Of a DNA stretch of 39,188 nucleotides, positions 7,804 through 32,768 are shown piece after piece. The first letter of the stretch is position 1. Every line of letters starts with the position of its first letter. The DNA is from Thermoproteota archaeon. GTDB taxonomy: Archaea; Thermoproteota; Methanomethylicia; Methanomethylicales; JAGHCH01. The stretch spans positions 1 to 39,188 of the forward strand of contig JAGHCH010000075.1 of assembly GCA_021160575.1 (NCBI GenBank). Reading direction: 5' to 3'. A program made the position numbers and the translations under genes. The notes below the pieces were generated by a model that worked only from the letters and a program-made list of their open reading frames with translations, did not search any database and was not told where the DNA came from.

Positions 7804-8297
7804 TTCAGTTTTATAAACTCAACTTTAAGGCTGGGCACCTCAAGCAGCGCTATGGTCGCATCGCCAGTTAAGTAGCCGCAACACTCCCCCGGATTCGCAA
7901 TGAGTCCTGAACTCAGCTTCGTGCATTCAAACTGGTGGGTGTGCCCGCACACCACTACATCGTATCTCCCAGAGAGAGCCAATGCCTCGACAATCTCCCG
8001 GTGGAACCCGTGGAGCAGCGCTATCTCAATGCCTTCCACTTTCACTACTCCAAATTCTCCCCTCAGTTCTCCACCAATCTCCTCGTACTTCCTTTTAAGC
8101 CCCTCAACTTCGCCGTCAACATTTCCTAGGACACCTATTAGCTTTGCATCCAGCTCCGCGAACTTCGCCACTGTAAAGGGCGCGTTATGATCTCCTGCAT
8201 GCAGCACCAGCTCCACGCCTCTCCTTTTAAACTCCTTCACAGCTTTCTCCACATTAGAGAGGTTATCATGAGTATCCGCGATCAAGCCCACCAGCAT
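7800..8297 (-). CDS. YfcE/MJ0936-family metallophosphodiesterase
   Basis: 165 aa with motifs LIADTHDN, LHAGDH, LGNVDGE and VCGHTHQ. Confidence 0.9.
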   Translation of the reverse strand: MLVGLIADTHDNLSNVEKAVKEFKRRGVELVLHAGDHNAPFTVAKFAELDAKLIGVLGNVDGEVEGLKRKYEEIGGELRGEFGVVKVEGIEIALLHGFHREIVEALALSGRYDVVVCGHTHQFECTKLSSGLIANPGECCGYLTGDATIALLEVPSLKVEFIKLK

Positions 8298-12300: not shown

Positions 12301-12414
12301 AGGTGAGTCCCTCTGGCAATTCTAACTTTGTGCAAACGCACTTAAAAAGCAGAGGCTATGTGTTTTCAGCTACTTGACTCCTGCATCTTGAAGGGAGGCT
12401 TAGGATAGAGAAGC

Positions 12415-13269
12415 TTATTTCTTGCTGCGCCTAGCCTTGGAGTACAGCTTCTTGAGAAGAAGCGCGTCTCCTTCAATGTTAGGGGATTCACTGATGATAA
12501 CTCCTTCAACCTTGAAATCCTTTAAAGCCTTCACCAAGTCGCGGTAGTTGAAGTCCGATTCCTCTAGGTTGAGGTGCTTGATCTCCCCCTTCTCGCCATA
12601 CTCTATCCCGGAAAAGTGCATGTGCATGTTTCTTAAGCACTCCCTGCCGAGCCTCTTCTCAAGCAGCTCGAAAATAGATGCTATTTCTTCATAGGTGTTG
12701 TATCCTCCAACGCTTCTGGCATGAAGATGGGCAAAATCTACGCAGGGGAGAACCCCCTCAATCTCCTCGCTGAGTCCCACTACCTCCTCAAGACTTCCAA
12801 ACTCGGCTAAGCCGCCAGCAGTCTCTGGGCGAACCCAGACCTCCACCCCCTCATCCTTCAAGGTCGCCATAATCCTCTCTAAGCTCTCCTTAACCCGGCT
12901 ATAGACCACTTGAGGCTCATCCTCACCATAGTAGGCGGCGTGGAAGACGATAGACCAACCGCCCACCTTGTGAGCCACCCTCGCCGTATCCAAGATTCTC
13001 TTAATACTTGCCTCCACCTTCTCCTTTTCTGGAGAGTTCAGGTTCACGTAATAGGGGGCATGCGCCGTTAAGACCACCTTAGCCTCCTCAGCTACCTTCT
13101 TCACCCTCTGAGCCAAGGAATCGCTCATCCTCACCCCATACACAAACTCCAATTCCATGGCATCCAAGCCAAGCTCCCTAACTCTCACTATCCCCTCAAT
13201 ACTCCCCTTCTTAGGAGTGCTCACGGGTACTCCAGCTGTTCCAAAGAGAAGCCCCTTAACAGGCTTCAA
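12415..13269 (-). CDS. Endonuclease IV-like TIM-barrel protein (AP endonuclease family 2 / xylose-isomerase-like fold)
   Basis: 284 aa. FGTAGVP...GLDAMELEFVYGV...LTAHAPYYVNLNS...IVFHAAYY...RPETAG...VDFAHLHAR...HMHFSGIEYGEKGEIKHL fits the archaeal Nfo-like metal-site pattern. TTG start. Confidence 0.75.
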   Translation of the reverse strand: MKPVKGLLFGTAGVPVSTPKKGSIEGIVRVRELGLDAMELEFVYGVRMSDSLAQRVKKVAEEAKVVLTAHAPYYVNLNSPEKEKVEASIKRILDTARVAHKVGGWSIVFHAAYYGEDEPQVVYSRVKESLERIMATLKDEGVEVWVRPETAGGLAEFGSLEEVVGLSEEIEGVLPCVDFAHLHARSVGGYNTYEEIASIFELLEKRLGRECLRNMHMHFSGIEYGEKGEIKHLNLEESDFNYRDLVKALKDFKVEGVIISESPNIEGDALLLKKLYSKARRSKK

Positions 13270-14400: not shown

Positions 14401-14607
14401 TTGGGAAAGACTGTAAGGCTTGAGGACTTACTCCGAGGAAAGCAAAAAGTAGTTGAGGAGATTTTAAAGGATCTCAGCCCTGAAGTTAGGGAGAAAGTTC
14501 TGGAGACCCTAAGCACCAGCAGAACCCTCGATGAACTTCAGGAGAACCTACGAATGCTCCTAGGGGTGGGCACAGCAAGGAAAATCATGAAGAAGCTAAC
14601 CCTCTAA
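14401..14607 (+). CDS. Small hypothetical protein (68 aa) with a C-terminal helix-hairpin-helix-like LLGVGTARKIMKKL
   Basis: TTG start preceded by the SD-like ggggtgaggg. Helical, charged composition. No family recognised. Confidence 0.45.
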   Translation: MGKTVRLEDLLRGKQKVVEEILKDLSPEVREKVLETLSTSRTLDELQENLRMLLGVGTARKIMKKLTL

Positions 14608-14660
14608 CCACATATTACGCGAGCACAGCGAATACTGTTTCAGTGTTAATCAGAGAAGCA

Positions 14661-14670
14661 ATATATATTT
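14661..14670 (+). promoter_or_regulatory. TATA box (atatatattt) for the 14732 operon
   Basis: This A/T block overlaps the TTG (14669) used by the ORF track, which argues that the real start is ATG 14732. That ATG has the SD-like gaggggg at 14721-14727. Confidence 0.5.
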
Positions 14671-14731
14671 GGTTAAGGCAATAAAGTCTAACACTTACCT
14701 GCTAGAGATCATCCTTCATAGAGGGGGCCTC

Positions 14732-15463
14732 ATGCCAGACGAAAAAGTCATAGAAATTACTATTGACGCTAAAACATTGCTCCTCGTGGCGATATCAGTT
14801 GCAGTTGTGATTTCTCTCATCAGCGTTTACGCATCTCCATGGATCACCGAGCACGAGAAAGCTCCCTCCCTAGACATCATAGACTTCAAGGTCAAAGTAA
14901 TTGCTCCAAACGGCACTGTCTTCCTTTACGACTGCGACACCAATCTCATAACGCCCGGCGTGGTAAACGTCTTCAAGAAGTACAATGCTACAGCAGGGGT
15001 CACGCTGCTTGGCACAGTTAATAAAGTGAAGCTCTCTAATGGCTCGAGGGTTATTTTCTCCCTGACTTTAAGTGCAGCTGCCGGCTACTTCGCCCCCCAT
15101 GGTCCCTATGTCTCCTACTATCTATACCCATATGGCTACTACTACCCATACTACACCTATCCATATGCTTATTACTACTACTTCTTCCCGCCAGCGAAGC
15201 CCATCAGCTTCACGGCTATAGTGAACATCTGGTTCAGCAAGCTCTCCGGCATCTACTCCTGCGCCCTCGACTATAATGCTTCAAGCATGCTTCCAGATGC
15301 CATCAAGACCGTGGATGTCCCATTCTTGATTCCATCAAGTGCTCTTCCAGGATGCTACAACGCCTCCATCTACGTCTGGGACTCACTGTTACCTAGCGGA
15401 GGTTTGAGAAAAGCCATTGACAGCGGCTTCTACATCGTGCCCTTGGAGGTTGTCACCACATGA
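14732..15463 (+). CDS. N-terminally anchored extracytoplasmic protein with a Tyr/Pro-rich low-complexity block
   Basis: 243 aa from ATG 14732. One TM segment, LLLVAISVAVVISLISVYA. N-x-S/T sequons NGT, NAT, NGS, NAS and NAS. The block GYFAPHGPYVSYYLYPYGYYYPYYTYPYAYYYYFFPP is encoded at 15086-15193. Its stop overlaps the next ATG (ATGA). Confidence 0.7.
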   Translation: MPDEKVIEITIDAKTLLLVAISVAVVISLISVYASPWITEHEKAPSLDIIDFKVKVIAPNGTVFLYDCDTNLITPGVVNVFKKYNATAGVTLLGTVNKVKLSNGSRVIFSLTLSAAAGYFAPHGPYVSYYLYPYGYYYPYYTYPYAYYYYFFPPAKPISFTAIVNIWFSKLSGIYSCALDYNASSMLPDAIKTVDVPFLIPSSALPGCYNASIYVWDSLLPSGGLRKAIDSGFYIVPLEVVTT

Positions 15464-18400
15464 GGGGGTGTAAAGGGTTGAAATCACCTAAATTCATCTC
15501 AACAGCAGCTCTCATGATCCTCATCTTAGCTTCCATGACACCATTAGCGCTAGCCGCCTTCTCAGTATCCACCGACCGCGCCTACTACAAGCCCGGAGAC
15601 TCCATAATAATCTCCATTACTGGCGCAACCCCTAATGACGTGGTAACCTTGCAGATCAACAGCACGCCAACCAACATCCTTTGGGTCTACGAAGTCACCA
15701 CAGACTCCAGTGGAAGCGCTAACGTCACTGTAGTTGCTTCTTGGGACTGGCTGGCCGGAAAGCCAGATGAAAGCTTCACGGTCTACGCAAAAGATCAAGG
15801 AACTCAAACCCTGGCCCTAACAACTTTCGACATTGATGCCCAGCGTCCAGCAGTCTTCATAGCCTATCCACTTCCAGGATCATGCATCAACAACCCCCGC
15901 CCAACCATGGTGGCAACCTACTTTGATAATGTTGGCGTTGATGTCAACAGGGTATTCCTCTTCCTAGACAACGTGAATGTAACTGCTCAAGCTCAACAAA
16001 TTAACGCCACCCACGCTGTCTATACCCCCTCAGCTGACCTACCCGAGGGTGTTCACAACTTCACTATAGTGGTATTCGACCTTGCTGGAAACATGAATTC
16101 CACTTTCTCCATTTTCACCATAGACTACACCGCCCCTGAGTTCTACAACTTCACCCCCGCCAACAACACCTTGATAGCCAATGCTCAGCCACTCATAGCT
16201 GTCAACTTCACTGACAACACTGGAATCAATTACACCAGCATCATCATGTGGCTCAACGGCACCGACGTAACTGCTCAAGCTAACATCTATGCGGGAGGAA
16301 TAGCCTACACGCCTCCAGCCCCGCTGGCTGAAAGAATCTGGAATGCTTGTGTCTATCTTGAGGACATAGCTGGCAACGAGAACTCCACCTTCTGGCTCTT
16401 CACAGTCGACATCACTCCTCCACTAGCCTCCAACTTCAAGCCAGCTAACGGCTCTACCATCTCCAACACCAAGCCGTTGATAGCCGCCAACTACACCGAT
16501 CTTCACGATGTGAACACTTCTGCAGTAAGGCTATACCTCAATGGCAAGGATGTAACCTTGAAGGCAACGGTGAAGCCAACCTACATCGCCTATAGACCAG
16601 CCGCCGACTTACCAGAGAAGAAGCACACGGTGGTCCTCTACATTGAAGACATGGCTGGCAACGGTAAGAACTACACATGGAGCTTCACCATAAGCATCCC
16701 AGCTCCACCACCGCCGCCAGATACCGAACCCCCAGAAATATACAACCTCAGACCAGCTCCTGGCTCCACAGTTTCAACAGCTACTCCAACTATCTCAGCC
16801 AGCTACAGAGACAATGTGGCAATTGACGTTGATTCGGTGAGGATATACGTGGATGGAGTCGACGTGACTGCTGAAGCCACCGTAACCGCCTCCTCCGTAA
16901 CCTACGTGCCTCCAGCTCCTCTCAGCGAGGGCATGCACACCGTCCGCGTAAAGGTGGCCGACACCTCTGGCAACACCAACGAGCGTGAATGGTGGTTCAA
17001 CGTCAAACTGCCAGACACCACGCCCCCCACAATAGTGAGCGTCACACCACCAGATGGGGCAACGGTGTCCACGGCAACTCCAACTATCTCTGCGTCATAC
17101 ACTGATGACACGGGCATTGATGTAAACTCTGTGAGGCTCTACGTAGACGGAGTTGACGTAACTAGCGAAGCCACGGTTACTGCATCCTCAGTAACCTATA
17201 CGCCGACAACACTCTTCGCCAACAACACAGGCCACACAGCCAGAGTGGAGGTAGCAGACCTAGCTGGCAACACCGCTGAGAGGGAGTGGAGCTTTACTGT
17301 AAGGTTGCCTCCAGCACCTCCAGCCGTTGAGCTAGCCTCACTAACTCTCTCCTGCGAGGCCACTGAGATATCTCCAGGAGACCCAGTAACCCTCACTCTA
17401 CTGGCCCTAGACACCACTGGCTCTGGCATGCCCGGGGTCACCGCCCACATCTACATAGACGACATCTACTACACAACCGTTGGGCCTACAAATGAACATG
17501 GCGAAGTCACCTTAACCATACCCGCTGGAGTGCTCGTCGAGGTTGGCACCCACACGATCTATGCGGCTGCCGAGGGAATCACCTCCAACACGGTCACAAT
17601 AGAAGTGCTCTCAATAGCTCCTCCACCAGTAAACTTCACCACAAGCTTACCAGCTATGGCCAATGTGTCGCTGCCAGCCGAGATAGTGGAGCAGGTGAAG
17701 GTGCTTAGAAGCATGATGGTCTACTCTGAGCAAGCCGTAGAGTCGGTCACCATCTCCACGGAGTTCCTGCCACTAGCCCCACCGGATGTGACTCCTCCTG
17801 AGGGAGTGGTCTACGCCCACTTCAAGATCTGCACCATACCCAAACTGGACTTCCCGGTCACCGCATATCTTGAGGTTAAGGTCTCCAAGGCATGGATCCG
17901 CTCACACAGCATAGCCCTCGACTCCATAACTATGATGGCTTATATCAACGAGTCCTGGCAGTCCATATCCATGAACCTCATAGGCGAAGACGACCACTTC
18001 TACTACTTCTCAGTAGTAGTTGAAATTCGCACCCTCTTCTCCATAGTAGGCACAGCAGTTACCGACACCGAGCCTCCAACCATCTATGACCTCCAGCCAG
18101 CTCCTGACGCCACGGTAACCGAGGTCACCCCAACCATCTCAGCTAAGTATAATGACAACACCGGAATAGACATCGGCTCAGTTAAGATCTACGTCGACGG
18201 TGTAGATGTAACTGCAAACGTCACCATAACAGCCAGCCAAGTCACCTACACGCCAGCAAAGCCCCTCACCGCTGGAGTACACACAGTCAAGGTAACGGTA
18301 GCCGACATCTACGGCAACAAAGCAGAGAGGGAGTGGAGCTTCACCATAGTACCGCCAGATACCGAGCCTCCAGAGATCTACGACCTTCATCCAGCTCCAG

Positions 18401-18738
18401 ACTCAGAAATCACAGAAACCAAGCCCACCATCTCAGCCAAGTATAGAGATCCCTCAGGCATTAGTGTGAACTCAGTTAAACTCTACGTCGATGGTGTAGA
18501 TGTAACCTCCAAGGCAGCAGTCACCGAGTCGCAGGTAACCTACACACCCGAGAAAGACCTCAGCACAGGCTCTCACACAGTCAAGGTAACGGTAGCCGAC
18601 ATCTACGGCAACAAAGCAGAGAGGGAGTGGAGCTTCACCATCACAGCTCCATTCCCGTGGCCTCTCGTAATCGCCATAATAATCGTAGTAGTAGTGATTA
18701 TAGCAGCCGCCGTCTACTACGCTAAGACCCGCCGCTAG
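15460..18738 (+). CDS. Large cell-surface glycoprotein: Sec signal, 7 Ig-like (SbsA/Big-type) repeats, a PGF-pre-PGF-like domain and a C-terminal TM anchor
   Basis: 1092 aa. The signal peptide is ...LILASMTPLALA/AFSV. Seven repeats of about 98 aa follow the pattern P.pgs.v....PtIsAsY.D..GIdv.SV.lYVDGVDVT..A.vt.s.VtYtP...L..G.HtV.V.VaD..GN..EReWsFt. The central segment (VYAHFKI...KAWI...ITMMAYINESWQSI...YYFSVVV..FSIVG) resembles the archaeal PGF-pre-PGF domain. The C-terminus is WPLVIAIIIVVVVIIAAAVYYAKTRR. Confidence 0.9.
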   Translation: MRGCKGLKSPKFISTAALMILILASMTPLALAAFSVSTDRAYYKPGDSIIISITGATPNDVVTLQINSTPTNILWVYEVTTDSSGSANVTVVASWDWLAGKPDESFTVYAKDQGTQTLALTTFDIDAQRPAVFIAYPLPGSCINNPRPTMVATYFDNVGVDVNRVFLFLDNVNVTAQAQQINATHAVYTPSADLPEGVHNFTIVVFDLAGNMNSTFSIFTIDYTAPEFYNFTPANNTLIANAQPLIAVNFTDNTGINYTSIIMWLNGTDVTAQANIYAGGIAYTPPAPLAERIWNACVYLEDIAGNENSTFWLFTVDITPPLASNFKPANGSTISNTKPLIAANYTDLHDVNTSAVRLYLNGKDVTLKATVKPTYIAYRPAADLPEKKHTVVLYIEDMAGNGKNYTWSFTISIPAPPPPPDTEPPEIYNLRPAPGSTVSTATPTISASYRDNVAIDVDSVRIYVDGVDVTAEATVTASSVTYVPPAPLSEGMHTVRVKVADTSGNTNEREWWFNVKLPDTTPPTIVSVTPPDGATVSTATPTISASYTDDTGIDVNSVRLYVDGVDVTSEATVTASSVTYTPTTLFANNTGHTARVEVADLAGNTAEREWSFTVRLPPAPPAVELASLTLSCEATEISPGDPVTLTLLALDTTGSGMPGVTAHIYIDDIYYTTVGPTNEHGEVTLTIPAGVLVEVGTHTIYAAAEGITSNTVTIEVLSIAPPPVNFTTSLPAMANVSLPAEIVEQVKVLRSMMVYSEQAVESVTISTEFLPLAPPDVTPPEGVVYAHFKICTIPKLDFPVTAYLEVKVSKAWIRSHSIALDSITMMAYINESWQSISMNLIGEDDHFYYFSVVVEIRTLFSIVGTAVTDTEPPTIYDLQPAPDATVTEVTPTISAKYNDNTGIDIGSVKIYVDGVDVTANVTITASQVTYTPAKPLTAGVHTVKVTVADIYGNKAEREWSFTIVPPDTEPPEIYDLHPAPDSEITETKPTISAKYRDPSGISVNSVKLYVDGVDVTSKAAVTESQVTYTPEKDLSTGSHTVKVTVADIYGNKAEREWSFTITAPFPWPLVIAIIIVVVVIIAAAVYYAKTRR
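15838..17310 (+). repeat. Five tandem coding repeats of about 294 nt (Ig-like modules R1-R5)
   Basis: Periodicity is visible in the translation: R1 AQRPAVFIAYPLPG..., R2 YTAPEFYNFTPANN..., R3 ITPPLASNFKPANG..., R4 DTEPPEIYNLRPAPG..., R5 DTTPPTIVSVTPPDG... Confidence 0.85.
18061..18651 (+). repeat. Two tandem 294-nt coding repeats (Ig-like modules R6-R7) containing a perfect 68-nt duplicate
   Basis: 18280-18347 and 18574-18641 are identical (cacacagtcaaggtaacggtagccgacatctacggcaacaaagcagagagggagtggagcttcaccat). The offset is exactly 294 nt. The rest of the two modules differs at many positions. Confidence 0.9.
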
Positions 18739-18756
18739 CCTTCAACATCCACAAAC

Positions 18757-18779
18757 CTTTTTCTTCTCTTCTTCCTTTC
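18757..18779 (+). terminator. Pyrimidine/oligo-T tract after the surface-protein gene
   Basis: ctttttcttctcttcttcctttc starts 19 nt after the stop and contains a T5 run at 18758-18762. Archaeal termination typically uses oligo-T. Confidence 0.35.
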
Positions 18780-18810
18780 AACTATAACTGGAAGAGGTGC
18801 GGAGCCCTCC

Positions 18811-19206
18811 ATGCCTCCCCTCTGTGAAATCTGTAGAGAACGTCCAGCCCAATACGTCTGCCAAAACTGCGGAGCGAGAGTCTGCGCAGAGTGCATAGAC
18901 CCCCACACCGGGCTCTGTTCCTACTGCCAGCCTAAAGCCACTACGCCAGCGCCAATAGCCACAGGCCTCCCCCTAGGCCTCAAAGTAATCTTCCTAGGAA
19001 TAGCCATGATCTTCATAGGCTTCCTCCTACTTTTCGCCTCAGCCCTTCTCTCCCCCGGAACTCAAGGCTCCGTCAGCGGAGGCGCTATAGTCTTCATAGG
19101 CCCCTTCCCCATAGCCTTTGGCTTTGGCCCCTATGCTCCCACACTCCTAGCCGTAGGTCTCTTAATCGCCACGCTGCTCTTCTTCTTGGCTTTCCGAAGA
19201 CACTAG
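18811..19206 (+). CDS. Zinc-ribbon (4x CxxC) plus 3-TM membrane protein, C-terminal part DUF131-like
   Basis: 131 aa. The N-terminus is CEICRERPAQYVCQNCGARVCAECIDPHTGLCSYC (8 Cys). Hydrophobic segments follow, and GGAIVFIGPFPIAFGFGP is the motif I associate with the archaeal DUF131/TIGR00304 family. Confidence 0.7.
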   Translation: MPPLCEICRERPAQYVCQNCGARVCAECIDPHTGLCSYCQPKATTPAPIATGLPLGLKVIFLGIAMIFIGFLLLFASALLSPGTQGSVSGGAIVFIGPFPIAFGFGPYAPTLLAVGLLIATLLFFLAFRRH

Positions 19207-19256
19207 CCCTCCTCCTTACGTTAGAGTAAAAGCTTATATTGCAGAAATTCTTCTTT

Positions 19257-19282
19257 GAGGTATACCTCAATAAGGTATACCT
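19257..19282. promoter_or_regulatory. Two palindromic operator-like sites (GAGGTATACCTC and AGGTATACCT) upstream of padR
   Basis: A perfect 12-bp palindrome sits at 19257-19268 and a perfect 10-bp palindrome with the same core at 19273-19282, centres 15 bp apart. They lie between the TATA-like cttatatt (19233-19240) and ATG 19293, so they would cover the expected transcription start. Confidence 0.55.
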
Positions 19283-19292
19283 CGTGGTGGCT

Positions 19293-19661
19293 ATGCGTCA
19301 GCTTTTCAACTTGTGGAAAATCGGATTAAAGAAGGGTCTCCTTGGAGTGTTCATCCTTCTACTCCTTCGAGAGAAACCTATGCATGGCTTTGAGCTGGCA
19401 AAGGAGATAGAGCGAGTGACTGGTGGAATGCTGAAGGTTAAACCCAAAGTTCTGTACCCTATCCTCCAGCGCATGGTGTTGTTCCACCTCGTTGATAGGG
19501 TTAGGGAGAGGTCTCCTGTAGGTCCTCCCCGCTACATCTACAAGCTGACGAGAGATGGCGAGCTATTCTTGAGGGAGATTATCCACTACTACACCCCCAT
19601 TGTTAGAGCGCTGATCAAGCTGGCTAGGCAGACTGCAAGGGCGCCGGAGGAATCGAAGTAA
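19293..19661 (+). CDS. PadR-family transcriptional regulator
   Basis: LLGVFILLLLREKPMHGFELAKEIERVTGGMLKVKPKVLYPILQRMVLFHLV...RYIYKLTRDGELFL is the PadR wHTH pattern. The ORF track starts at TTG 19239, but that extension covers the TATA and operators. The stop overlaps the MMPL ATG (TAATG). Confidence 0.85.
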   Translation: MRQLFNLWKIGLKKGLLGVFILLLLREKPMHGFELAKEIERVTGGMLKVKPKVLYPILQRMVLFHLVDRVRERSPVGPPRYIYKLTRDGELFLREIIHYYTPIVRALIKLARQTARAPEESK

Positions 19662-22600
19662 TGGTGTTTAAGGGGCTAGCCAACCTGGTCACCAAGCGAT
19701 ACAAGCTCATCATAGCTGCATGGATCATAGCAGCTATCATTTTGATACCCTATGGGTTTAAGCTTGAATCCATCACAACCTATGAGGTCAAAGCTCCAGC
19801 CCACATGGAATCGGTACTCGCCGAGAATCTCATCAAAGAATCCTTTACCAACTTCCCAAATGGCAGCTTAATAATTGTCGTGGAAGCCGACAACGTGACT
19901 TCCCCGCATGTAGCCTCCCTAATCATCAAGCTCAATGAGACGCTGCGCACTCTGGAGCCTGTGAATAACGTTTCTTCCATCTATGACCTTGAAAAGAGGT
20001 TGCTCAAGCAGCTCTTCTCCGAAGACACGCTAGACGCTTTAAGCAAGGTTAAGGAGAACATCACCGACTTAAGCGAACAGCTACACGATCTCTACGGCAT
20101 AGTTGAAAATGCAAGTCAGAGGCTTTACGAAGCCATAGACTACGTCAATGAGTCTAACCAAGCCCTCTACAACCTCACCGAGCTAGCTGAGAACCTCACC
20201 GACGCCCTCCATGAAGCCAAGGAGATGGTCTTCGACGCCTATCACTCTTTAAAGCAGCTTGAGGGCGGCGTCTCTGGAATGGGCTGCATGGTCTACGGCG
20301 TCCCCAGCCTCTATGTCAAGATATGGCTCCAGTACAACTCCACCCTAGGCAAAATACTTCCAGTTACAGTTATCAATGCTATGGCCAACGCCACTCTATA
20401 CAATGTCACTAACAACTTCCAAGGAAACCTCCTCGCTAAATCCTTCTACGACCTCTTCTACATCGAGTGGAATCAAAGCTTCTCCACGCAGCCAGCTCTC
20501 GACCCCTATGCAAGGGCTAAAAGCGCCATAGATTCAGCAGCTCTCAAAATGCTCGCCCAGCTAACCAGCCCCAAAACCAAGTTCCTCTTTAGCGCTGTAT
20601 GGCGAAGCCTCAGCTTCACCACATGGAACTCGACATGGGCCATCAAGCAGCTCACCTACAAGATAGCCTCTCAAAGAATTCCCCCAGCCTACCGAGACAC
20701 TATAAGAGAGGTCTACTTTAAGAACGGAAACCCCCTCGTAGTCAAACTATGCCTAGTCAAAGGCTTCGCCGATGAGATCTGCGAGGAATACCCAGACTTT
20801 AACAGAAGCTCGGTAGAGCAGCTCCTCCTTGACCTCTACGACTTGAAGGAAAACGAAAGCGTGGTGCCTGCAGTTATTTCCTTCATGAAGTCGCAGATAA
20901 ACGAGACAATGGCTCAAGACCTCGAAGACTATCTAAACATGACTGTCGAGGAGTTCCTTTGGGAAGTCTACGAACTCGGAGAGAATCCGCCTCTCACCAA
21001 GATGGTCTCTCTAGTGGTAAATTCCTCCTCTAATGCAATACCGGAAGATGATAGAGAGCAGCTTGAAGAGTACTTGAACATGACTGTCGAGGAGTTCCTT
21101 TGGGAAGTCTATGATCTTGGAGAAACTCCATCACCACGTGCAATTCAATCATTCATAGTGAACTTTTCCTCCAAGGCCCTTTCAGAAGATGAGCGGGAAG
21201 ACCTTGAAGACTTCTTCAATATGACCGTAGAGCAACTCCTCTGGAAGATCTTCAGCTTAGGCTATCCTCCAAATGAAGCCGAGTTAGAGGGCTTCATCGT
21301 AGATACTCTGACGAACGCCTTCAAGGAAAACCTCACCTCCCCCTTCTTAGAAGTGAACACGGCATCGCTTAAGAAACATCTTCACCAGCTCTATAAGATC
21401 TCCGGCAACGGCTCACAAGGCATTCTACGCCAACTGCTCGAGCAAACCCTCCTCCAAGAAACTTTCCACAGCTACCCCATAGCACCTTCAGAAGACATCC
21501 TCCACAAGTTCATCAGCAAGGATGACCGCATCCTCATCGTCAACGTGAACCTCAAGTACGATGCCGGAAGCTATGAAGCTCGAAAAGCCACAGAGCAAGT
21601 TAGGCAGCTCCTCGCTTCTCTCGACAACCAAGAATCCAGCGTCAAGTTCTATGTAACTGGAACACCAGCCTTCAACCACGATAGCTCTGTGGAGCTGAAG
21701 CGGGATATCTCAAGAATAGATCCAACGCTGATCTTCATGGCGCTAGTGCTGGTAGGTCTCTACTTCTCCTCCTTCACAGCTCCTCTCCTACCAGTGCTCA
21801 TCATAGGCTTAGCCGTACTCATGGCTCAGGGAGTCCTCTTCTTCGTGGGGCAAGTGATTCCCATCTACTATGCCACACGCCTCCTAGTGCCAGTCACCAG
21901 CCTAGGAGCTGGGGTGGACTTCTCCATCTTCATCATGTCCCGCTACCTAGAAGAGAGGCGTAAAGGTATGGATAAGAGGAGCTCAGTCTTCACAGCCATC
22001 CAGTGGGCTGGCGAGAGCGTCGCTACAAGCGGGGGGACCACTATCTCAGCCTTCGGGGCATTAGCTCTCTCCCAGCTATCCTCGGTCAGCTCCATAGGGC
22101 TGGGCGTGATGCTCGGCATCGGCATGGTGCTGCTGGCTTCTCTTACGCTCACCCCCTCTATTCTCATGCTACTCGGAGATAGATGCTTCATCGGAGCCAA
22201 AATCCGCAGAAGACCATCCGCTGCACCGAAGCCGAGCAGAACTGCCAGATACTTCGCGCATGCAGCTAGAATTACCAGAAGGCATGCTAAGGCGATAATA
22301 GCCGTCTCTCTGATCATCGCTATAGCTTGTTCATGCGTAGTGGCCACCATGGAAACCTCTAACGACATCATCGCTGATCTCCCTCCATCTGAGAGCAAGC
22401 AAGCCTTCGAAGTAGCCTCCACCTACTTCCCACCAGGTGAGCTCTTTCCAACCTATGTGGTAGCCCAGCTGCCCGCCAAGATAGCCACCCCAAAGGGATT
22501 CAACAACACCGCTCTACGTCAAGTCGAGCAGTTCTCAAAGATGCTGGAATCCATACCCGGAGTAGTTAAGGTGGAATCTCTGGTCCAGCCCTACGGTAAG

Positions 22601-23473
22601 CCCATCAACTACACAGAGCCCGACGAAGTCACAGAGAAGCTGATGAAAAGCTACCTAGGCAAGGATAATTCCACCGTGCTCTTTCAAGTAATCCTAGGCT
22701 ACGAACCCTTCAGTGAGGATGCCCTTCAAACGGCGAAGCTTATCCGTGAAAAGATTAGCAGCTTCAAGGAGCAACTGCCCCTCTTCAAGGAGGCGGAAGT
22801 GCTAGTAGGGGGGAGCTCCGCTGGTGCTCTCGACACCGAGGCCTTTGCTTGGAATGAGTTCCTACACCTAGCAGCCTTTGTCATAGTAGCAATCTTCATC
22901 ATTCTCTCCATAGTTCTCAACTCCATACTCACGCCGCTGAGGCTCATCGCAACCATCGTCTTCGGAGTCTTCTGGAGCCTAGCCATCACCACCCTACTCT
23001 TCCAGAAGGCTTTAGGAGTCCCCATCTTCTTCTTGGTGCCCATGATTCTCTTCATAGCAATGACTGGGCTAGGCATAGACTACGACATCTTCCTGGTAAC
23101 ACGTGCGCGTGAGGAGGTGATTAAGGGGAAGAGTGATGAAGATGCTATCTCCGAAGCTTTGGTGCACACTGGTGGAATCATCACCGCCTGTGGAGTAGTG
23201 ATGGCTGGCTCCCTAGGCTCCTTGATGCTCTCCACTTCTCCAATGCTCTATGTGATGGGCTTCGCCCTAGCGCTATCAGTGCTCTTCGACACCTTCATCA
23301 TTAGAACCTACTTGGTGCCAGCGGTCATGCTGATGCTCAAGAAGTACAACTGGTGGGCTCCCTGGAGGCTTCGCAAGATGACTCCTCTAGTAGAAGCTAT
23401 AGAGCAGAAAGAGCAAAGCATAGCACGCCAAGGGGGTCAAAGTCCAGAAGATCACAAGTTTCATCAGCTCTAA
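19661..23473 (+). CDS. MMPL/RND-superfamily exporter with a very large N-glycosylation-sequon-rich ectodomain
   Basis: 1270 aa. TM1 is followed by about 650 aa with no hydrophobic segments, then a TM bundle with GAGVDFSIFIMSRYLEERRKG. A second loop of about 200 aa is followed by a second bundle with GLGIDYDIFLVTRAREEV (the duplicated MMPL/RND signature). An SD ggagga lies 10 nt upstream. Confidence 0.9.
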   Translation: MVFKGLANLVTKRYKLIIAAWIIAAIILIPYGFKLESITTYEVKAPAHMESVLAENLIKESFTNFPNGSLIIVVEADNVTSPHVASLIIKLNETLRTLEPVNNVSSIYDLEKRLLKQLFSEDTLDALSKVKENITDLSEQLHDLYGIVENASQRLYEAIDYVNESNQALYNLTELAENLTDALHEAKEMVFDAYHSLKQLEGGVSGMGCMVYGVPSLYVKIWLQYNSTLGKILPVTVINAMANATLYNVTNNFQGNLLAKSFYDLFYIEWNQSFSTQPALDPYARAKSAIDSAALKMLAQLTSPKTKFLFSAVWRSLSFTTWNSTWAIKQLTYKIASQRIPPAYRDTIREVYFKNGNPLVVKLCLVKGFADEICEEYPDFNRSSVEQLLLDLYDLKENESVVPAVISFMKSQINETMAQDLEDYLNMTVEEFLWEVYELGENPPLTKMVSLVVNSSSNAIPEDDREQLEEYLNMTVEEFLWEVYDLGETPSPRAIQSFIVNFSSKALSEDEREDLEDFFNMTVEQLLWKIFSLGYPPNEAELEGFIVDTLTNAFKENLTSPFLEVNTASLKKHLHQLYKISGNGSQGILRQLLEQTLLQETFHSYPIAPSEDILHKFISKDDRILIVNVNLKYDAGSYEARKATEQVRQLLASLDNQESSVKFYVTGTPAFNHDSSVELKRDISRIDPTLIFMALVLVGLYFSSFTAPLLPVLIIGLAVLMAQGVLFFVGQVIPIYYATRLLVPVTSLGAGVDFSIFIMSRYLEERRKGMDKRSSVFTAIQWAGESVATSGGTTISAFGALALSQLSSVSSIGLGVMLGIGMVLLASLTLTPSILMLLGDRCFIGAKIRRRPSAAPKPSRTARYFAHAARITRRHAKAIIAVSLIIAIACSCVVATMETSNDIIADLPPSESKQAFEVASTYFPPGELFPTYVVAQLPAKIATPKGFNNTALRQVEQFSKMLESIPGVVKVESLVQPYGKPINYTEPDEVTEKLMKSYLGKDNSTVLFQVILGYEPFSEDALQTAKLIREKISSFKEQLPLFKEAEVLVGGSSAGALDTEAFAWNEFLHLAAFVIVAIFIILSIVLNSILTPLRLIATIVFGVFWSLAITTLLFQKALGVPIFFLVPMILFIAMTGLGIDYDIFLVTRAREEVIKGKSDEDAISEALVHTGGIITACGVVMAGSLGSLMLSTSPMLYVMGFALALSVLFDTFIIRTYLVPAVMLMLKKYNWWAPWRLRKMTPLVEAIEQKEQSIARQGGQSPEDHKFHQL
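20921..21343 (+). repeat. Three tandem 141-nt (47-aa) coding repeats in the MMPL ectodomain
   Basis: The units are LEDYLNMTVEEFLWEVYELGENPP..., LEEYLNMTVEEFLWEVYDLGETPS... and LEDFFNMTVEQLLWKIFSLGYPPN... A 35-nt perfect match (aacatgactgtcgaggagttcctttgggaagtcta) occurs at 20936 and 21077. Confidence 0.9.
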
Positions 23474-24319
23474 GGGGTTAACAGCTCTAACCCCCTTAGC
23501 CAAGCCAGCTCCAATGATTCCCCCAACCATGGCTTGAGTGATGGAGACGGGGATGCCAAACTGGGTGAAGAAGTGGATGGTGAGCGCTCCGCTCAGCTGA
23601 GCTGCTAGAGTGGTCGTGGCGCCAAACTTCACAAAGCCCGTGCCCAGCTTCTCTGCCACCACCCATCCTAAGCTTAGCACCCCTACTACAGCCATAGCCC
23701 CTGCAATCGCCCCAGCTAGCGCATAGTGGGCTTCTCCGCCGTAGATGCTGCTCATCAATCCCAGCGTGTTGGCTCCCAAGACATAAGCTATGTAAAAGGC
23801 TCCGAAGAGGCTGAGGCAGCCATAAAGCGTGTAGATTTCCGTTACACCCCCGATCTTACGGGCCATGGACATCAAAGCCCTCGCCAACACCACGCCTAAA
23901 ACCACTGCCACTAATGGCGTAGTCGCCCAGGATGCTAAGACCCACTGCACGTAGCTCTCTGAGACCTTTAAGCCAAGCGGGTGGCATACCCCCAGTAAGC
24001 CTCCAACAATGGCAAAGGTCACGGGCAAAGGCATCTTTAGAAAAGTTGCAAACGCTGTAACCATCGCTGCCACGCCTAAAATCACAGCAGCCACATAAGG
24101 ATCCCTAACTGGAGCTTGTGCAGCGGAGAGGGCTGAAAGCATCTTCCAGCCTTCAGCTACCAGCCCAGCCACCAAGCCAGCTGCAAAGAGGATCGACACC
24201 TTTGCATAGCTTGCAACCTTGCCTCCTATAGCTGGGCCAACACCATTAGATGCATTATTAGCGCCAAGGAGAAAGGCACAGAGCGCTAAGCTGAATAGAA
24301 GAGCTGTTTCAGCGGGCAT
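23387..24319 (-). CDS. Inorganic phosphate transporter, PiT (PHO4) family
   Basis: 310 aa and polytopic, with LGANNASNGVGPAIGG near the N-terminus and GANTLG in the second half (PiT repeats). The 3' end overlaps the MMPL gene by 87 nt. Confidence 0.9.
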   Translation of the reverse strand: MPAETALLFSLALCAFLLGANNASNGVGPAIGGKVASYAKVSILFAAGLVAGLVAEGWKMLSALSAAQAPVRDPYVAAVILGVAAMVTAFATFLKMPLPVTFAIVGGLLGVCHPLGLKVSESYVQWVLASWATTPLVAVVLGVVLARALMSMARKIGGVTEIYTLYGCLSLFGAFYIAYVLGANTLGLMSSIYGGEAHYALAGAIAGAMAVVGVLSLGWVVAEKLGTGFVKFGATTTLAAQLSGALTIHFFTQFGIPVSITQAMVGGIIGAGLAKGVRAVNPLELMKLVIFWTLTPLACYALLFLLYSFY

Positions 24320-24321
24320 TC

Positions 24322-25014
24322 TTAGCTCATCGCCTTGGTGGCTATCAGCGTCAAGACGTCTGAAGCCCTCTCAGCGTTATCCGCCACTTGGTCGAGTGAG
24401 AGAATGTAGTCCTTGAGCTGAAGGTACGTGACTACACTCAGCTGATCTTCTATTTCGCCTAAGCTCTCAAGCAGCTTGATCTTCAACTCATCGAGCAGCT
24501 CCTCCTTCTTCTCCACCTCATGTGCTACCATGAAGGACTCCTCCACATTCTTCTCAAGCAGCTCCACCCCCTGCAGCAAGTGCTCCACGCAGCGCACCAC
24601 ATCCCTAGCCATCGTCTTCAACTCCACCCCGCAGCTCTCCACAAACAGCCTCAACTCCTCCGAAGAGATCACTCTGAGGTAGAGCACCCTTGAAGCATCC
24701 TTAGCTGCATCAGCTACCTCATCCAAGCTGTCAACAAGCTTCATGTAATCCTCCTTCAATCCTATGAAGAAAGCTCCCTTCGCCAGGTTCAGCTCAATTC
24801 TCCTCTTCAGATCATCTGCCTCCCTCTCGATGGTGGCTATCAAAGCTGCGTGCTCTCTGACATTTCTCCAATCTCCTTCAAGGAAGGCTGCGGCTTGAGG
24901 CTCTAATAGCTTCACAGCTGATGAAATCATCTTGCAAAGCTCTCTAATCGCCTCTGCAGCGCCCCTCGCCTGAGGGATTAGCCTGCCTAGCTTCACCATA
25001 ACTGACAACCTCAA
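24322..25014 (-). CDS. DUF47/TIGR00153 PhoU-like protein (PiT-associated regulator)
   Basis: Helical protein with IATIEREADDLKRRIELNL...LVDSLDEVADAAKDAS. Its stop is 2 nt from the PiT ATG, the classic DUF47-PiT pair. The true start may be ATG 24999. Confidence 0.85.
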   Translation of the reverse strand: MRLSVMVKLGRLIPQARGAAEAIRELCKMISSAVKLLEPQAAAFLEGDWRNVREHAALIATIEREADDLKRRIELNLAKGAFFIGLKEDYMKLVDSLDEVADAAKDASRVLYLRVISSEELRLFVESCGVELKTMARDVVRCVEHLLQGVELLEKNVEESFMVAHEVEKKEELLDELKIKLLESLGEIEDQLSVVTYLQLKDYILSLDQVADNAERASDVLTLIATKAMS

Positions 25015-25037
25015 ATCAACTTGCCCTACAACGGCTA

Positions 25038-25868
25038 TTAACCTACCTTAAGTTTACCCAAGCTGAGCGAGAAAACATCCTTCCTTCTATGCCTCAGCAC
25101 TGGCAGCAGCTCCCTAACTCTCCTAATTCTCTCCAAGTCGATCTCAGCTACCAGCAGCTTCTCCTCCTCGCCAGCCTCCGCTACGATGATGCCCATCGGA
25201 TCTACTACTGCGCTTCTTCCACACCTAAGCCTCCCCGTTTGGTTAGCTCCAAGCATGTAGACTTCATTTTCCAAGGCTCTAACCTTCAGTAAGGTCAGCC
25301 AGTGCTCCTCCTTCAGAGAACCAGCAAACCATGCCGATGGAACAGCTATGATATCAGCTCCCTTCAACGCCAGAATTCTCGAAACCTCTGGAAACCTCAG
25401 ATCATAGCAGATCTCCATTCCAATGACGCCCAGCTCAGTTTTCACCGGAGCCGCAATATCGTCTCCAGCGACGATCTTCTCGGATTCTCTAACCTCCATG
25501 GCATCGTAGAGGTGGAGCTTCCTATAGGTGGCAGCTATCTCCCCCTCTGGGTTAATCATCACCGCCGTGCTATACGCCTTCATGCCAGTTGCCTTCTCAT
25601 AGATACCCACTATCAAGTATACTTCACACTCTTTAGCAATCTCCCTGAGCCGCTTAACGAAGAAACCTTGCAAATCCTCGGCTACCACTGTAGGCATTTC
25701 CTCTCGCTTCAAGCTAGCTATAGCATATTCAGGGGCCACCACCAGCCTTGCTCCTTGAGATGCGGCTTCACGGCACATCTCCGCGATCTTCTTCAAGTTC
25801 TCCTCCTTCTCTCTCGAAACCTCCATCTGCAGTAAAGCAATCTTGAACTTCAATAGCAATCTCCTCAA
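25038..25868 (-). CDS. Carbon-nitrogen hydrolase (nitrilase superfamily)
   Basis: KIALLQMEV...VVAPEYA (Glu)...YRKLHLYD (Lys)...MEICYDLRFPE (Cys) gives the catalytic E-K-C triad context. The start may be an internal TTG near 25853. Confidence 0.9.
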   Translation of the reverse strand: MRRLLLKFKIALLQMEVSREKEENLKKIAEMCREAASQGARLVVAPEYAIASLKREEMPTVVAEDLQGFFVKRLREIAKECEVYLIVGIYEKATGMKAYSTAVMINPEGEIAATYRKLHLYDAMEVRESEKIVAGDDIAAPVKTELGVIGMEICYDLRFPEVSRILALKGADIIAVPSAWFAGSLKEEHWLTLLKVRALENEVYMLGANQTGRLRCGRSAVVDPMGIIVAEAGEEEKLLVAEIDLERIRRVRELLPVLRHRRKDVFSLSLGKLKVG

Positions 25869-25989
25869 TTAAGGGCTAAGCCTTCAAAGATAGGCTCTAT
25901 TATGTGTCTAGGGAATCATATAGCTTCTTCACGATCCACTAGCTGTAGGATGCTTCTCTAGCGTCGCTTGAAGCTGCCTTAGACGCCGC

Positions 25990-26325
25990 TTAAACATTCT
26001 CTTCCTCGAGGACCCTGTGAACCACGCGCTTAACTCTATCTAGAAGCTCTCTACCAGCTCCGGTTAGCCTGTAGTATCGAAGCGTGCGTCTACCCCTCCT
26101 ACTGAGAAAGCTGTCTAGAAGACCCGATTCTTCAAGCTCATAGAGCAATGGATAAACAGTTCCGGAGTGCAGCTTAATACCCATATTCTTCTTCAGCTCT
26201 TTCAAGATAGTGTATCCTGTCATCTCATGCTTCTCCAACAGCGCAAGAATAACAAATCTAACTAGCCCTTTCAAAAGCAGACCCTTAATGCGGTTGAAAG
26301 CCAATTCAGAGATCACAGACAACAA
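25990..26325 (-). CDS. PadR-family transcriptional regulator (second copy)
   Basis: VRFVILALLEKHEMTGYTILKELKKNMGIKLHSGTVYPLLYELEESGLL...RYYRLTGAGRELL. It is divergent from the radical SAM gene. Confidence 0.85.
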   Translation of the reverse strand: MLSVISELAFNRIKGLLLKGLVRFVILALLEKHEMTGYTILKELKKNMGIKLHSGTVYPLLYELEESGLLDSFLSRRGRRTLRYYRLTGAGRELLDRVKRVVHRVLEEENV

Positions 26326-32231: not shown

Positions 32232-32768
32232 GTGCCAGAAGTCCTCCTCCATTTTTCAATCCCATTTTCAGCCGTATTCTCCATTACTGGAAGGCTTCGC
32301 TACGCGTTTCTAGCAGGGGTTTTCGGCGTAATCCCAGACTTAGACATCCTCTTTGAAATTCATCGTTCTCCCACTCACTCCATTCCAGTACTCCTAGCAG
32401 TCGCCGTTCCCGTACTCGTCATGCTATCCTCGAGAAACAGCCGCTTCCTCAAAGCCTCGGAGATAGGGCTCTTCGGGATGCTATCCCATCCCATCCTAGA
32501 CCTCTTCGACGGCTACACCCCCATCCTCTGGCCTCTCTCCAGCTACTCCCCTTGGATTAAATTCTCAGTGGAGGCATACCTCTCAAGCACGCCCAGCCTC
32601 AACGTAGACTGCCAAGTGCTATGGCAACCTACAATCTTCCACCCTGTGGAAACCATAGGGGGAGTCCTAGTGACCCCTCTGGGAGCCGTCATCTCAGCCG
32701 CCCTAATGCTCCCTCCACTGGTAATGGTTGCCATCCACTACTACAAGTTCCTCAGAAGCCTCGACTAA
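32232..32768 (+). CDS. Membrane-bound metal-dependent hydrolase, DUF457/YdjM-like
   Basis: 178 aa and polytopic, with His/Asp motifs LHFSIPF, IPDLDILFEIHRSPTHS and SHPILDLFDG. Confidence 0.7.
   Translation: MPEVLLHFSIPFSAVFSITGRLRYAFLAGVFGVIPDLDILFEIHRSPTHSIPVLLAVAVPVLVMLSSRNSRFLKASEIGLFGMLSHPILDLFDGYTPILWPLSSYSPWIKFSVEAYLSSTPSLNVDCQVLWQPTIFHPVETIGGVLVTPLGAVISAALMLPPLVMVAIHYYKFLRSLD

Follow-up and report, generated by a model that had tools for sequence, protein, structure and literature searches.

The closest described counterparts of the five-gene locus considered here are the siderophore and drug exporters MmpL4 and MmpL5 of mycobacteria, the archaeal surface-layer (S-layer) proteins built from arrays of immunoglobulin (Ig)-like domains, and the PadR-family regulator LmrR of Lactococcus lactis, which regulates the lmrCD efflux genes. 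The locus occupies positions 14,732 to 23,473 of contig JAGHCH010000075.1 (assembly GCA_021160575.1), the whole 39,188 nucleotides (nt) of which were analyzed and are referred to below as the window. It comes from an archaeon of the Methanomethylicia (Thermoproteota) and encodes, in order, a tyrosine-rich (Tyr-rich) membrane protein, a cell-surface glycoprotein, a small zinc-finger membrane protein (ZnR-DUF131), a PadR-family repressor, and a transporter of the MMPL/RND superfamily. The Methanomethylicia (formerly Verstraetearchaeota) are candidate methyl-reducing methanogens that are largely uncultured, and to our knowledge nothing is known about their cell envelope.

Each of the described systems resembles only a part of the locus. 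MmpS5 of mycobacteria, made up of one transmembrane (TM) helix and an Ig-like domain, clamps both the MmpL5 trimer and its coiled coil (PMC12501195). PadR repressors act as dimers on palindromic DNA until effectors release them, and the subfamily-2 member LmrR has an inter-subunit pocket for its effector (PMC5728393). The PySLP-like plan of an Ig array followed by a TM anchor and a basic tail has been described across the Thermoproteota, including the Methanomethylicia (bioRxiv 10.64898/2026.08.21.746120). The padR-MMPL part of the window is a regulator-exporter pair of a well-known kind, in which a winged helix-turn-helix (wHTH) repressor accompanies an RND or MMPL pump, and the Tyr-rich protein has no described counterpart.

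The five genes are probably three independent neighboring units, placed next to one another through lineage-specific synteny. All five open reading frames (ORFs) lie on the forward strand at the coordinates below, as a first-pass annotation of the window had described them. Unit A (14732-18738) is a coupled two-gene set encoding the Tyr-rich and surface proteins, apparently with a TATA-like promoter-like element of its own. Unit B (18811-19206) is a stand-alone gene for the ZnR-DUF131 membrane protein, with its two-zinc finger on the cytoplasmic side, and is treated here as a bystander. Unit C (19293-23473) is the padR-MMPL pair, which looks autoregulated, presumably by PadR repressing its own transcription. 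The features are as follows.

14652..14669, forward strand: promoter-like element of unit A, purine-rich AGAGAAGC followed by TATA-like AATATATATT (14660-14669), about 65 nt before the ATG at 14732
14732..15463, forward strand: Tyr-rich membrane protein, an ORF of 243 amino acids (aa), with an N-terminal signal-anchor TM helix and a predicted Ig-like beta-sandwich ectodomain carrying 5 N-glycosylation sequons (NxS/T)
15080..15193, forward strand: Tyr/Pro-rich block of the same protein, residues 117-154, GYFAPHGPYVSYYLYPYGYYYPYYTYPYAYYYYFFPPA, a loop inserted in the beta-sandwich
15460..18738, forward strand: cell-surface glycoprotein, an ORF of 1092 aa with Pfam and NCBIfam domains
18756..18779, forward strand: T-rich tract CCTTTTTCTTCTCTTCTTCCTTTC directly after the stop of the surface gene, candidate archaeal oligo-T terminator between units A and B
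18780..18789, forward strand: TATA-like AACTATAACT, about 25 nt before the ATG of gene 3
18811..19206, forward strand: ZnR-DUF131 membrane protein, 131 aa, an 8-Cys two-zinc finger fused to a DUF131/TIGR00304 module
19226..19240, forward strand: putative TFB recognition element (BRE)/TATA-like element of the padR-MMPL unit, GTAAAAG CTTATATT
19257..19283, forward strand: candidate PadR operators GAGGTATACCTC (19257-19268) and AAGGTATACCTC (19272-19283), palindromes with centers 15 bp apart
19293..19661, forward strand: PadR-family repressor, 122 aa (PF03551, E 5e-16)
19661..23473, forward strand: MMPL/RND-superfamily transporter, 1270 aa (PF03176)
19979..21511, forward strand: all-alpha insert of about 510 aa in the transporter, residues ~107-617, which splits the first extracytoplasmic porter subdomain and holds most of the sequons of loop 1
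20924..21346, forward strand: three tandem 47-aa repeats within the insert, residues 422-562, each with a conserved NMT sequon

Three related sequences indicate how far the gene order extends. L003, the genome that carries an MMPL relative of 88% identity, is collinear with the window across the full 24 kb retrieved, with none of the five ORFs disrupted, which indicates close relatedness only. L011, the contig of a Tyr-rich relative of 57% identity, carries a small 68-aa gene, the Tyr-rich gene, and the surface gene, the latter two joined by a TGATG overlap. L099, a second short contig from the same sample, carries the C-terminal anchor of the surface protein, a T8 run, the ZnR-DUF131 gene, padR, and the start of the MMPL gene. 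Together, these two contigs show that the whole order is kept within the lineage and not beyond it. Across genomes, the five-gene order was found only within close-to-intermediate relatives (58-88% protein identity), and this is ordinary lineage synteny. Every ORF was searched, by profile and by single sequence, at more than 85 loci with MMPL relatives, 80 of them in metagenomes (26-42% identity) and about 10 taken from the protein database; relatives of the Tyr-rich protein and of the DUF131 protein numbered 0 each.

The division into units follows from the T-rich tract found after the surface gene in three lineages, from separate conserved TATA-like elements before genes 1, 3, and 4, and from a PadR motif that occurs only before padR. 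The element at 14652 to 14669 is the likely promoter of unit A; a Shine-Dalgarno (SD)-like GAGGGGG stands at 14721-14727 before the Tyr-rich gene, and the AATATATA core and the SD-like/ATG region are kept in L003, where the surrounding intergenic DNA has diverged. The T-rich tract, a putative terminator, is likewise kept in L003, and the T8 run of L099 stands at the same place. The position of the TATA-like element before gene 3 suggests a leaderless transcript for unit B. For unit C, AAAAGCTTATATT is invariant in L003 and has the equivalent CAAGCTTTATC in L099. A search for the operator motif GGTATACC elsewhere in the cluster found neither that motif nor a similar site before genes 1 to 3, and there was no other copy in the 39-kb window.

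The first-pass annotation had proposed a single regulated assembly and export module and had named, as the alternative, that the genes are merely neighbors. The module is without support, given that relatives of the genes are not co-localized beyond the lineage, that the PadR motif occurs only at padR, and that the units are set apart by a T-run and by TATA-like elements of their own. The alternative is the better reading between units and fails within units A and C, where the genes are coupled. A linked five-gene export system, as claimed, is not borne out and should be kept out of annotation.

The Tyr-rich and surface proteins of unit A

Gene 1 encodes a single-pass protein with a Tyr/Pro block, as described at first, with one TM helix near the N terminus (residues 16-34) and 17 of its 25 Tyr residues inside a 40-residue window. 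The ATG at 14732 is taken as its start because the L003 relative has no in-frame extension upstream. Searches of Pfam, NCBIfam, and PDB sequences gave no match. An AlphaFold2 (AF2) model with a predicted local distance difference test (pLDDT) score of 65 consists of a helix at residues 13-41 and a beta-sandwich with strands at 46-116 and 158-241, for which Foldseek retrieved only generic Ig-like sandwiches (E about 1e-3). The Tyr/Pro block is modeled at pLDDT <35, as a loop that is either unstructured or unpredictable, and is nearly invariant in the L011 relative despite an overall identity of ~57-58%.

The family is rare. Only 3 close homologs were present in 5.8e9 proteins, at 95%, 79%, and 57% identity, and an exhaustive profile search of 1.84e9 representatives yielded two distant true members of ~192 aa, P0052 (E 1e-7) and P0054 (E 1.7e-5), the latter with an hhalign probability of 96.7% (E 3e-10). 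Both keep the N-terminal ITIDAKxL motif, the TM helix, GYxxPYG, the Tyr-rich insert, and the C-terminal W(D/S)xxLPxGG. The Tyr-rich proteins thus constitute a family without a Pfam or NCBIfam model that forms 3 clusters at 50% identity among the 1.84e9 representatives.

The surface protein begins with a hydrophobic N-terminal signal ending in ALA|AF, followed by an MG2-like N-terminal domain, five Big_13 domains, a further Ig-like domain, a PGF-pre-PGF domain, two Big_13 domains, a TM anchor, and the tail KTRR. Its earlier description, with a Sec-type signal, seven Ig-like repeats, a PGF-pre-PGF domain, a C-terminal TM anchor, and many sequons, was borne out in all parts. Big_13 matched in 7 stretches (E 2.5e-45), PGF_pre_PGF (TIGR04213) matched above cutoff at residues 744-864 (54.8 bits versus 28), where the domain is internal, and the C-terminal TM helix at 1067-1085 is followed by the basic tail YYAKTRR. 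The protein has a mass of 115 kDa, an isoelectric point (pI) of 4.4, and 21 sequons, compared with 10.0 +/- 2.8 in shuffled sequences; 20 of them are kept in L003. No relative with a solved structure was found by sequence at E<=1e-3. A reading of the protein as an archaeosortase substrate of the PGF-CTERM type was tried and rejected, as its last 40 residues match no NCBIfam CTERM model of a C-terminal sorting signal at E<=10.

Genes 1 and 2 are translationally coupled by the ATGA overlap noted at first pass, and the stop-start overlap recurs as GTGA in L003 and as TGATG in L011. At both P0052 and P0054, the next gene, 2-5 bp downstream, encodes a protein with a signal peptide. In their N-terminal domains, these two partners resemble the window surface protein (pairwise E 8e-5 and 1.4e-5) and share the motifs VSTD(K/R)xxY and T(L/V)YAK. 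The distant Tyr-rich relatives retain only the surface-protein partner. Since the partner signal-peptide gene is kept even at P0052 and P0054, genes 1 and 2 are considered a conserved module.

The Tyr-rich and surface proteins presumably associate at the cell surface, where the Tyr-rich protein would act as a co-anchor or assembly partner of the large surface protein and both products together would form a structure of the S-layer or adhesin type. The pair of a Tyr-rich anchor and an Ig array offers a concrete candidate, open to testing, for a component of a surface layer or adhesin in the Methanomethylicia.

A 68-aa ORF without a family match lies just upstream of the Tyr-rich gene (14401-14607, forward strand). 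In the lineage whose Tyr-rich protein has just 58% identity, the visible part of this ORF is identical at 39 of 40 residues, so the 68-aa protein is very strongly constrained. Its C terminus GVGTARKIMKKL looks like a helix-hairpin-helix, and it is apparently not present upstream of the distant Tyr-rich relatives.

The padR-MMPL unit and its archaeal relatives

The padR gene probably starts at the ATG at 19293 and not at the TTG at 19239 given for the listed ORF, as the ATG appears to correspond to the padR start of L099. The best relatives of PadR with solved structures are PadR proteins of 110-124 aa, and as a single-domain wHTH protein of 122 aa it falls in the size class of subfamily 2 (11-14 kDa, PMC5728393). 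The first conserved DNA-contact Tyr appears, when read without a structural alignment, to be Phe (GFEL) in the window PadR. The first-pass annotation had placed paired palindromic operators over the start site of the gene; the two GGTATACC palindromes are present and conserved, and binding to them is predicted. They are the only 2 sites in the window, against 0.32 expected, and 4 of 100 shuffled sequences reach 2. Both copies are kept in L003 and in L099, where PadR is 64% identical, with flanks that have diverged and acquired indels. They lie ~20-45 bp downstream of the TATA element and cover the expected archaeal transcription start, a position that fits autorepression. A near-match to the operator, GAGGCATACCTC at 32571, was discarded since it lies in a coding region and is within chance (1.6 expected). 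A second PadR paralog, 32% identical to the first, is encoded at 25990-26325 on the reverse strand.

LmrR of L. lactis, with other subfamily-2 efflux regulators, is by analogy the nearest model for this regulator: a small, single-domain PadR protein of ~120 aa whose gene adjoins a multidrug or lipophile exporter operon, which it probably represses by way of palindromic operators. The window unit differs in that its transporter is of the MMPL/RND type, whereas lmrCD encodes an ABC transporter, in that its promoter context appears to be an archaeal BRE/TATA, and in that the operator GGTATACC is unrelated to characterized PadR boxes.

The MMPL gene is coupled to padR by the TAATG overlap described at first pass (TGATG in L099). 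Its product matches PF03176 in 2 stretches, one in each half (E 1.2e-90, 304 bits versus a cutoff of 20.5), but belongs to no curated subfamily, scoring below the NCBIfam cutoffs for actII (TIGR00833, 309.6 versus 874.7 bits), HAE3 (TIGR00921, 211.8 versus 351.9 bits), and MmpL3 (119.9 versus 1400 bits). By hydropathy, TM1 is followed by a 654-aa loop, a cluster of five TM helices, TM7, a loop of ~170 aa, and a second cluster; 11 of 12 segments pass. This agrees with the first loop of ~650 aa, with ~24 sequons and three 47-aa repeats, that had been noted before. The protein has 27 sequons, compared with 6.8 +/- 2.3 in shuffled sequences, of which 24 are in loop 1, where the reversed motif S/TxN occurs 4 times. 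The two outside loops account for all 27 and the 465 TM and cytoplasmic residues for 0, and 27 of 27 are retained in the 88%-identical ortholog. Tandem Repeats Finder detected neither the 47-aa repeats nor the Ig repeats of the surface protein as DNA tandem repeats, which indicates that the 47-aa duplication is old. In an AF2 model of residues 21-700, the insert opens with two helices of ~40 residues; the overall pLDDT is 54, with the canonical alpha/beta porter core at 65-85 and a helical insert modeled at low confidence. The alignment with the relative P0006, at 24% identity (E 5e-38), extends over much of the insert.

The closest solved structures are those of MmpL5 and MmpL4 (E about 1e-55) and MmpL3 (about 1e-34), which align with residues 619-1249 only. 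MmpL4 and MmpL5 belong to the same family, match the TM core and porter regions, and, like the window protein, add a helical extracytoplasmic insert to a core of the MmpL3 type. The mmpS5L5 genes are also under the control of a wHTH repressor (Rv0678; PMC12501195), although the window regulator is of the PadR family. The insert of MmpL5 is a 196-aa antiparallel coiled coil in porter domain 2 (PD2) that forms a trimeric tube stabilized by MmpS5 (PMC12501195), whereas that of the window protein lies in PD1 (first loop), spans ~510 aa, is mostly multi-helical, and is rich in N-glycosylation motifs. The window locus has no MmpS gene, and its host is an archaeon without an outer membrane or cell wall.

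In the MmpL3 paradigm, Asp-Tyr pairs in TM4 and TM10 form the proton relay. Asp753 (TM4) and Asp1140-Tyr1141 (TM10) of the window protein fall in invariant alignment columns, and TM4 has Phe754, giving Asp-Phe where the clade consensus is Asp-Tyr.

Close relatives of the transporter number only two (98% and 88% identity), and a scan of species-representative genomes found only two distant loci, both in Thermoplasmata. In 63 full-length metagenomic relatives, loop 1 has a median length of 384 aa (59 have at least 300 aa and 12 at least 500 aa, with a maximum of 1136 aa) and contains 729 NxS/T motifs versus 203 reversed motifs. An expanded, sequon-rich first loop is thus the rule in a broad archaeal MMPL clade, in which the window protein stands at the upper end and is not unique. 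A literature search on archaeal MMPL, HAE3, or PadR-MMPL pairs found essentially nothing relevant, and we know of no archaeal member of this large-loop clade that has been characterized.

The immediate neighbors of these MMPL genes were scanned with Pfam (48 upstream and 70 downstream ORFs), a scan that was added because wHTH neighbors are poorly detected by single-sequence phmmer. They are heterogeneous, including glyceraldehyde-3-phosphate dehydrogenase, leucyl-tRNA synthetase (LeuRS), and DUF835 proteins, and the sole recurring theme is a winged-helix regulator (upstream, TrmB at 7 and IclR at 4; downstream, MarR_2 at 5 and HVO_A0261_N at 4). Loci of the Methanomassiliicoccus type have a divergent TrmB gene. 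The only homolog with an adjacent PadR is P0011, a 1464-aa MMPL of 24% identity that is followed by an overlapping padR gene. Large surface-type proteins adjoin the MMPL gene at ~5 loci and belong to unrelated families (papain plus Big_13, DUF11, PKD, NosD/beta-helix, and laminin-G) in mixed orientations.

PadR dimers would bind both GGTATACC palindromes, covering the transcription start, until a hydrophobic ligand releases them. The transporter, presumably driven by protons, would then move a lipophilic or amphiphilic compound out of the membrane, and the glycosylated helical insert of its first loop would reach into the space under the surface layer. If large-loop MMPL proteins do export membrane lipids or lipophilic compounds across the sub-S-layer space, they would be an archaeal counterpart of the mycobacterial MmpL conduits.

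Several further features of the clade were recorded. P0007 (1303 aa) is an archaeal MMPL relative fused to a Flg_new_2 (InlB B-repeat-like) domain, and the gene for P0006 (1362-aa MMPL; L004/L005) has 50 bp downstream a gene for a 1090-aa protein with Laminin_G_3 and Flg_new_2 domains; these are isolated hints of links between MMPL and surface proteins in other lineages. In one subclade (L015-L020, L029, L031, L033, L035, and L037), a conserved protein of ~610 aa is encoded 33 bp downstream and co-directionally, and this could be a real MMPL partner there. An ORF of ~960-990 aa lies upstream of the MMPL gene at L015-L017, L019, L020, and L033. DUF835 is the commonest Pfam family among the downstream neighbors (9 members), and class I tRNA-synthetase/LeuRS-type domains occur in 6 upstream neighbors. 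At L009, which carries a 1464-aa MMPL and a PadR (7900-8000 and 12392-12712), two tandem GGAWTCTGATATA repeats and the perfect palindrome ATATCGCT-C-AGCGATAT precede the MMPL start and may be a different set of PadR operators in an analogous autoregulated operon.

Alternative readings of the locus

The first-pass annotation had linked the Ig array, TM anchor, and heavy glycosylation of the surface protein to the building plan of archaeal S-layer proteins, and this is a recognized plan (bioRxiv 10.64898/2026.08.21.746120). The PySLP-like proteins of Thermoproteota, SlaA/SlaB of Sulfolobales, and csg of Haloferax volcanii are also secreted and glycosylated, and in them, too, an Ig-like array is followed by a C-terminal TM anchor with a basic tail; slaAB likewise pairs the gene for a large protein with that for a small membrane protein (bioRxiv 10.64898/2026.08.21.746120). 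Unit A might therefore be the principal S-layer of the organism, with the Tyr-rich protein as a second anchoring or stabilizing subunit in a role like that of SlaB or Saci_1846. Such a reading is compatible with three separate units and narrows the function of unit A, and we regard it as doubtful. The tandem Ig-like domains (7 Big_13 and further Ig-like domains), TM helix, and basic tail match the PySLP-like plan, for which homologs have been proposed in Methanomethylicia (bioRxiv 10.64898/2026.08.21.746120); the protein is acidic and rich in conserved sequons, and the two-gene operon recalls slaAB. However, the proposed homologs belong to the Culexarchaeales, the window protein could not be related by sequence to any solved S-layer protein, and at 115 kDa it is far below the 292 kDa of PySLP. 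Its last Ig repeat is separated from the TM helix by ~8 residues (TAPFPWPL), so that a membrane-proximal beta-hairpin is unlikely. It differs further from Ig-array S-layer proteins in having a PGF-pre-PGF domain and no PGF-CTERM signal, its Tyr-rich partner differs from SlaB in being N-terminally anchored and lacking the coiled-coil stalk, and the extreme rarity of the Tyr-rich family suits an accessory adhesin equally well. A tentative and, in our judgment, unlikely proposal is that unit A makes an undescribed two-component surface structure, in which the Tyr-rich protein, its Tyr/Pro loop serving for docking or cross-linking, holds or organizes the Ig array as the S-layer of this lineage or as a major adhesin, and that, separately, the glycosylated inserts of the MMPL clade form a conduit through the sub-S-layer space, equivalent in function to the coiled-coil tube of MmpL5.

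Some points weigh against three separate units. Gene order, co-directionality, and short spacers are kept in L011 and L099 at only 58-64% protein identity, so some functional linkage inside the lineage is conceivable. The promoter and terminator calls come from reading consensus elements in three related sequences, and the structure models are of low to moderate confidence (pLDDT 65 and 54 for the Tyr-rich protein and MMPL, respectively). In the N-terminal domain, the surface protein is weakly similar to the partners of P0052 and P0054, which both lie on short contigs. Phe754, in place of the consensus Tyr at the TM4 relay, means that proton coupling of the transporter is only assumed. The first of these points would favor a single envelope module in this lineage, in which a PadR-controlled MMPL exports a lipid or glycolipid for the assembly or anchoring of the surface protein, with the Tyr-rich and ZnR-DUF131 proteins as accessories. 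So would the strong enrichment of every extracytoplasmic part in sequons and the few distant large-loop MMPL proteins that adjoin a large surface protein or carry a Flg_new_2 fusion (L004/L005, L044, L056, L059, and P0007). Such a module is nevertheless very unlikely: Tyr-rich and DUF131 relatives are missing from all of the more than 85 MMPL loci, the surface-type neighbors elsewhere are unrelated to one another and variously oriented, the operator motif was not found upstream of genes 1 to 3, a T-run and separate promoter-like elements divide the units, and no glycosyltransferase, AglB, or archaeosortase genes were found in the window. Extremely improbable is a more specific link, in which the Tyr-rich protein serves the transporter as an adaptor of the MmpS type. 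The Tyr-rich protein and MmpS5 share a gross architecture in the model, an N-terminal TM helix followed by an Ig-like sandwich, and a long helical insert is present in the window MMPL as it is in MmpL5, whose coiled coil is stabilized by the Ig-like domain of MmpS5 (PMC12501195). However, Pfam, a PDB sequence search, and the 50 best Foldseek matches yielded no MmpS, and no Tyr-rich family member occurs at any other MMPL locus. The Tyr-rich gene lies 4.2 kb from the MMPL gene and is coupled to the surface gene instead, as it is in all relatives, close and distant alike, and the MmpS identity was rejected.

Unit B and the flanking genes

The ZnR-DUF131 protein had been described as a zinc ribbon fused to a DUF131-like module of three TM helices. 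The fusion of an 8-Cys domain with DUF131 stood (TIGR00304, E 5e-14 and 51.9 bits versus a cutoff of 33; PF01998, 29.1 bits versus 22), whereas the finger proved to be B-box/HIT-like and not a classical zinc ribbon: its eight Cys form four CxxC pairs, and its best Pfam matches are B-box and HIT-type two-zinc fingers. The DUF131 part may consist of two TM helices and a Gly/Pro-rich re-entrant segment instead of three TM helices. Both L003 and L099 (63% identity in the latter) retain the fusion with its full set of 8 Cys. The C-terminal 70 residues match the DUF131/TIGR00304 family, including its conserved GGAIxFIGPFPIxFG motif. In contrast to the window protein, the other members are ~100 aa long and occur as tandem pairs adjoining RPA-like and isocitrate-dehydrogenase-family (Iso_dh) genes, and the N-terminal 8-Cys finger was found in no other member retrieved. 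The gene is intact at 9155-9553 of L003, where the public gene call gave a 32-aa ORF on the opposite strand, and in L099 it was called from an internal ATG, with loss of the zinc finger from the annotation. Because of these miscalls, the fusion is probably under-represented in protein databases.

The genes flanking the locus are unrelated housekeeping genes, encoding among others an MscS channel, an apurinic/apyrimidinic endonuclease, PHO4/PhoU, a nitrilase-like hydrolase, and radical-SAM enzymes. Products of flanking genes fall into clusters of at least 90% identity with proteins assigned to Candidatus Methanomethylicia, a class of the Thermoproteota, in agreement with the stated origin. Rfam and tRNA scans found no rRNA, tRNA, or other Rfam element in the window, and no oligosaccharyltransferase gene was found there. 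A scan for sigma-70 promoters and intrinsic terminators gave counts at or below those expected from shuffled sequences, the models being bacterial and uninformative for an archaeon. On the reverse strand, a run of genes at 23387-26325 begins with the PadR paralog and continues with the nitrilase-like hydrolase (25038-25868), PhoU_div (24322-25014), and a PHO4-type permease (23387-24319). The 3' end of the permease gene overlaps that of the MMPL gene by 87 nt, an overlap that is also present in L003.

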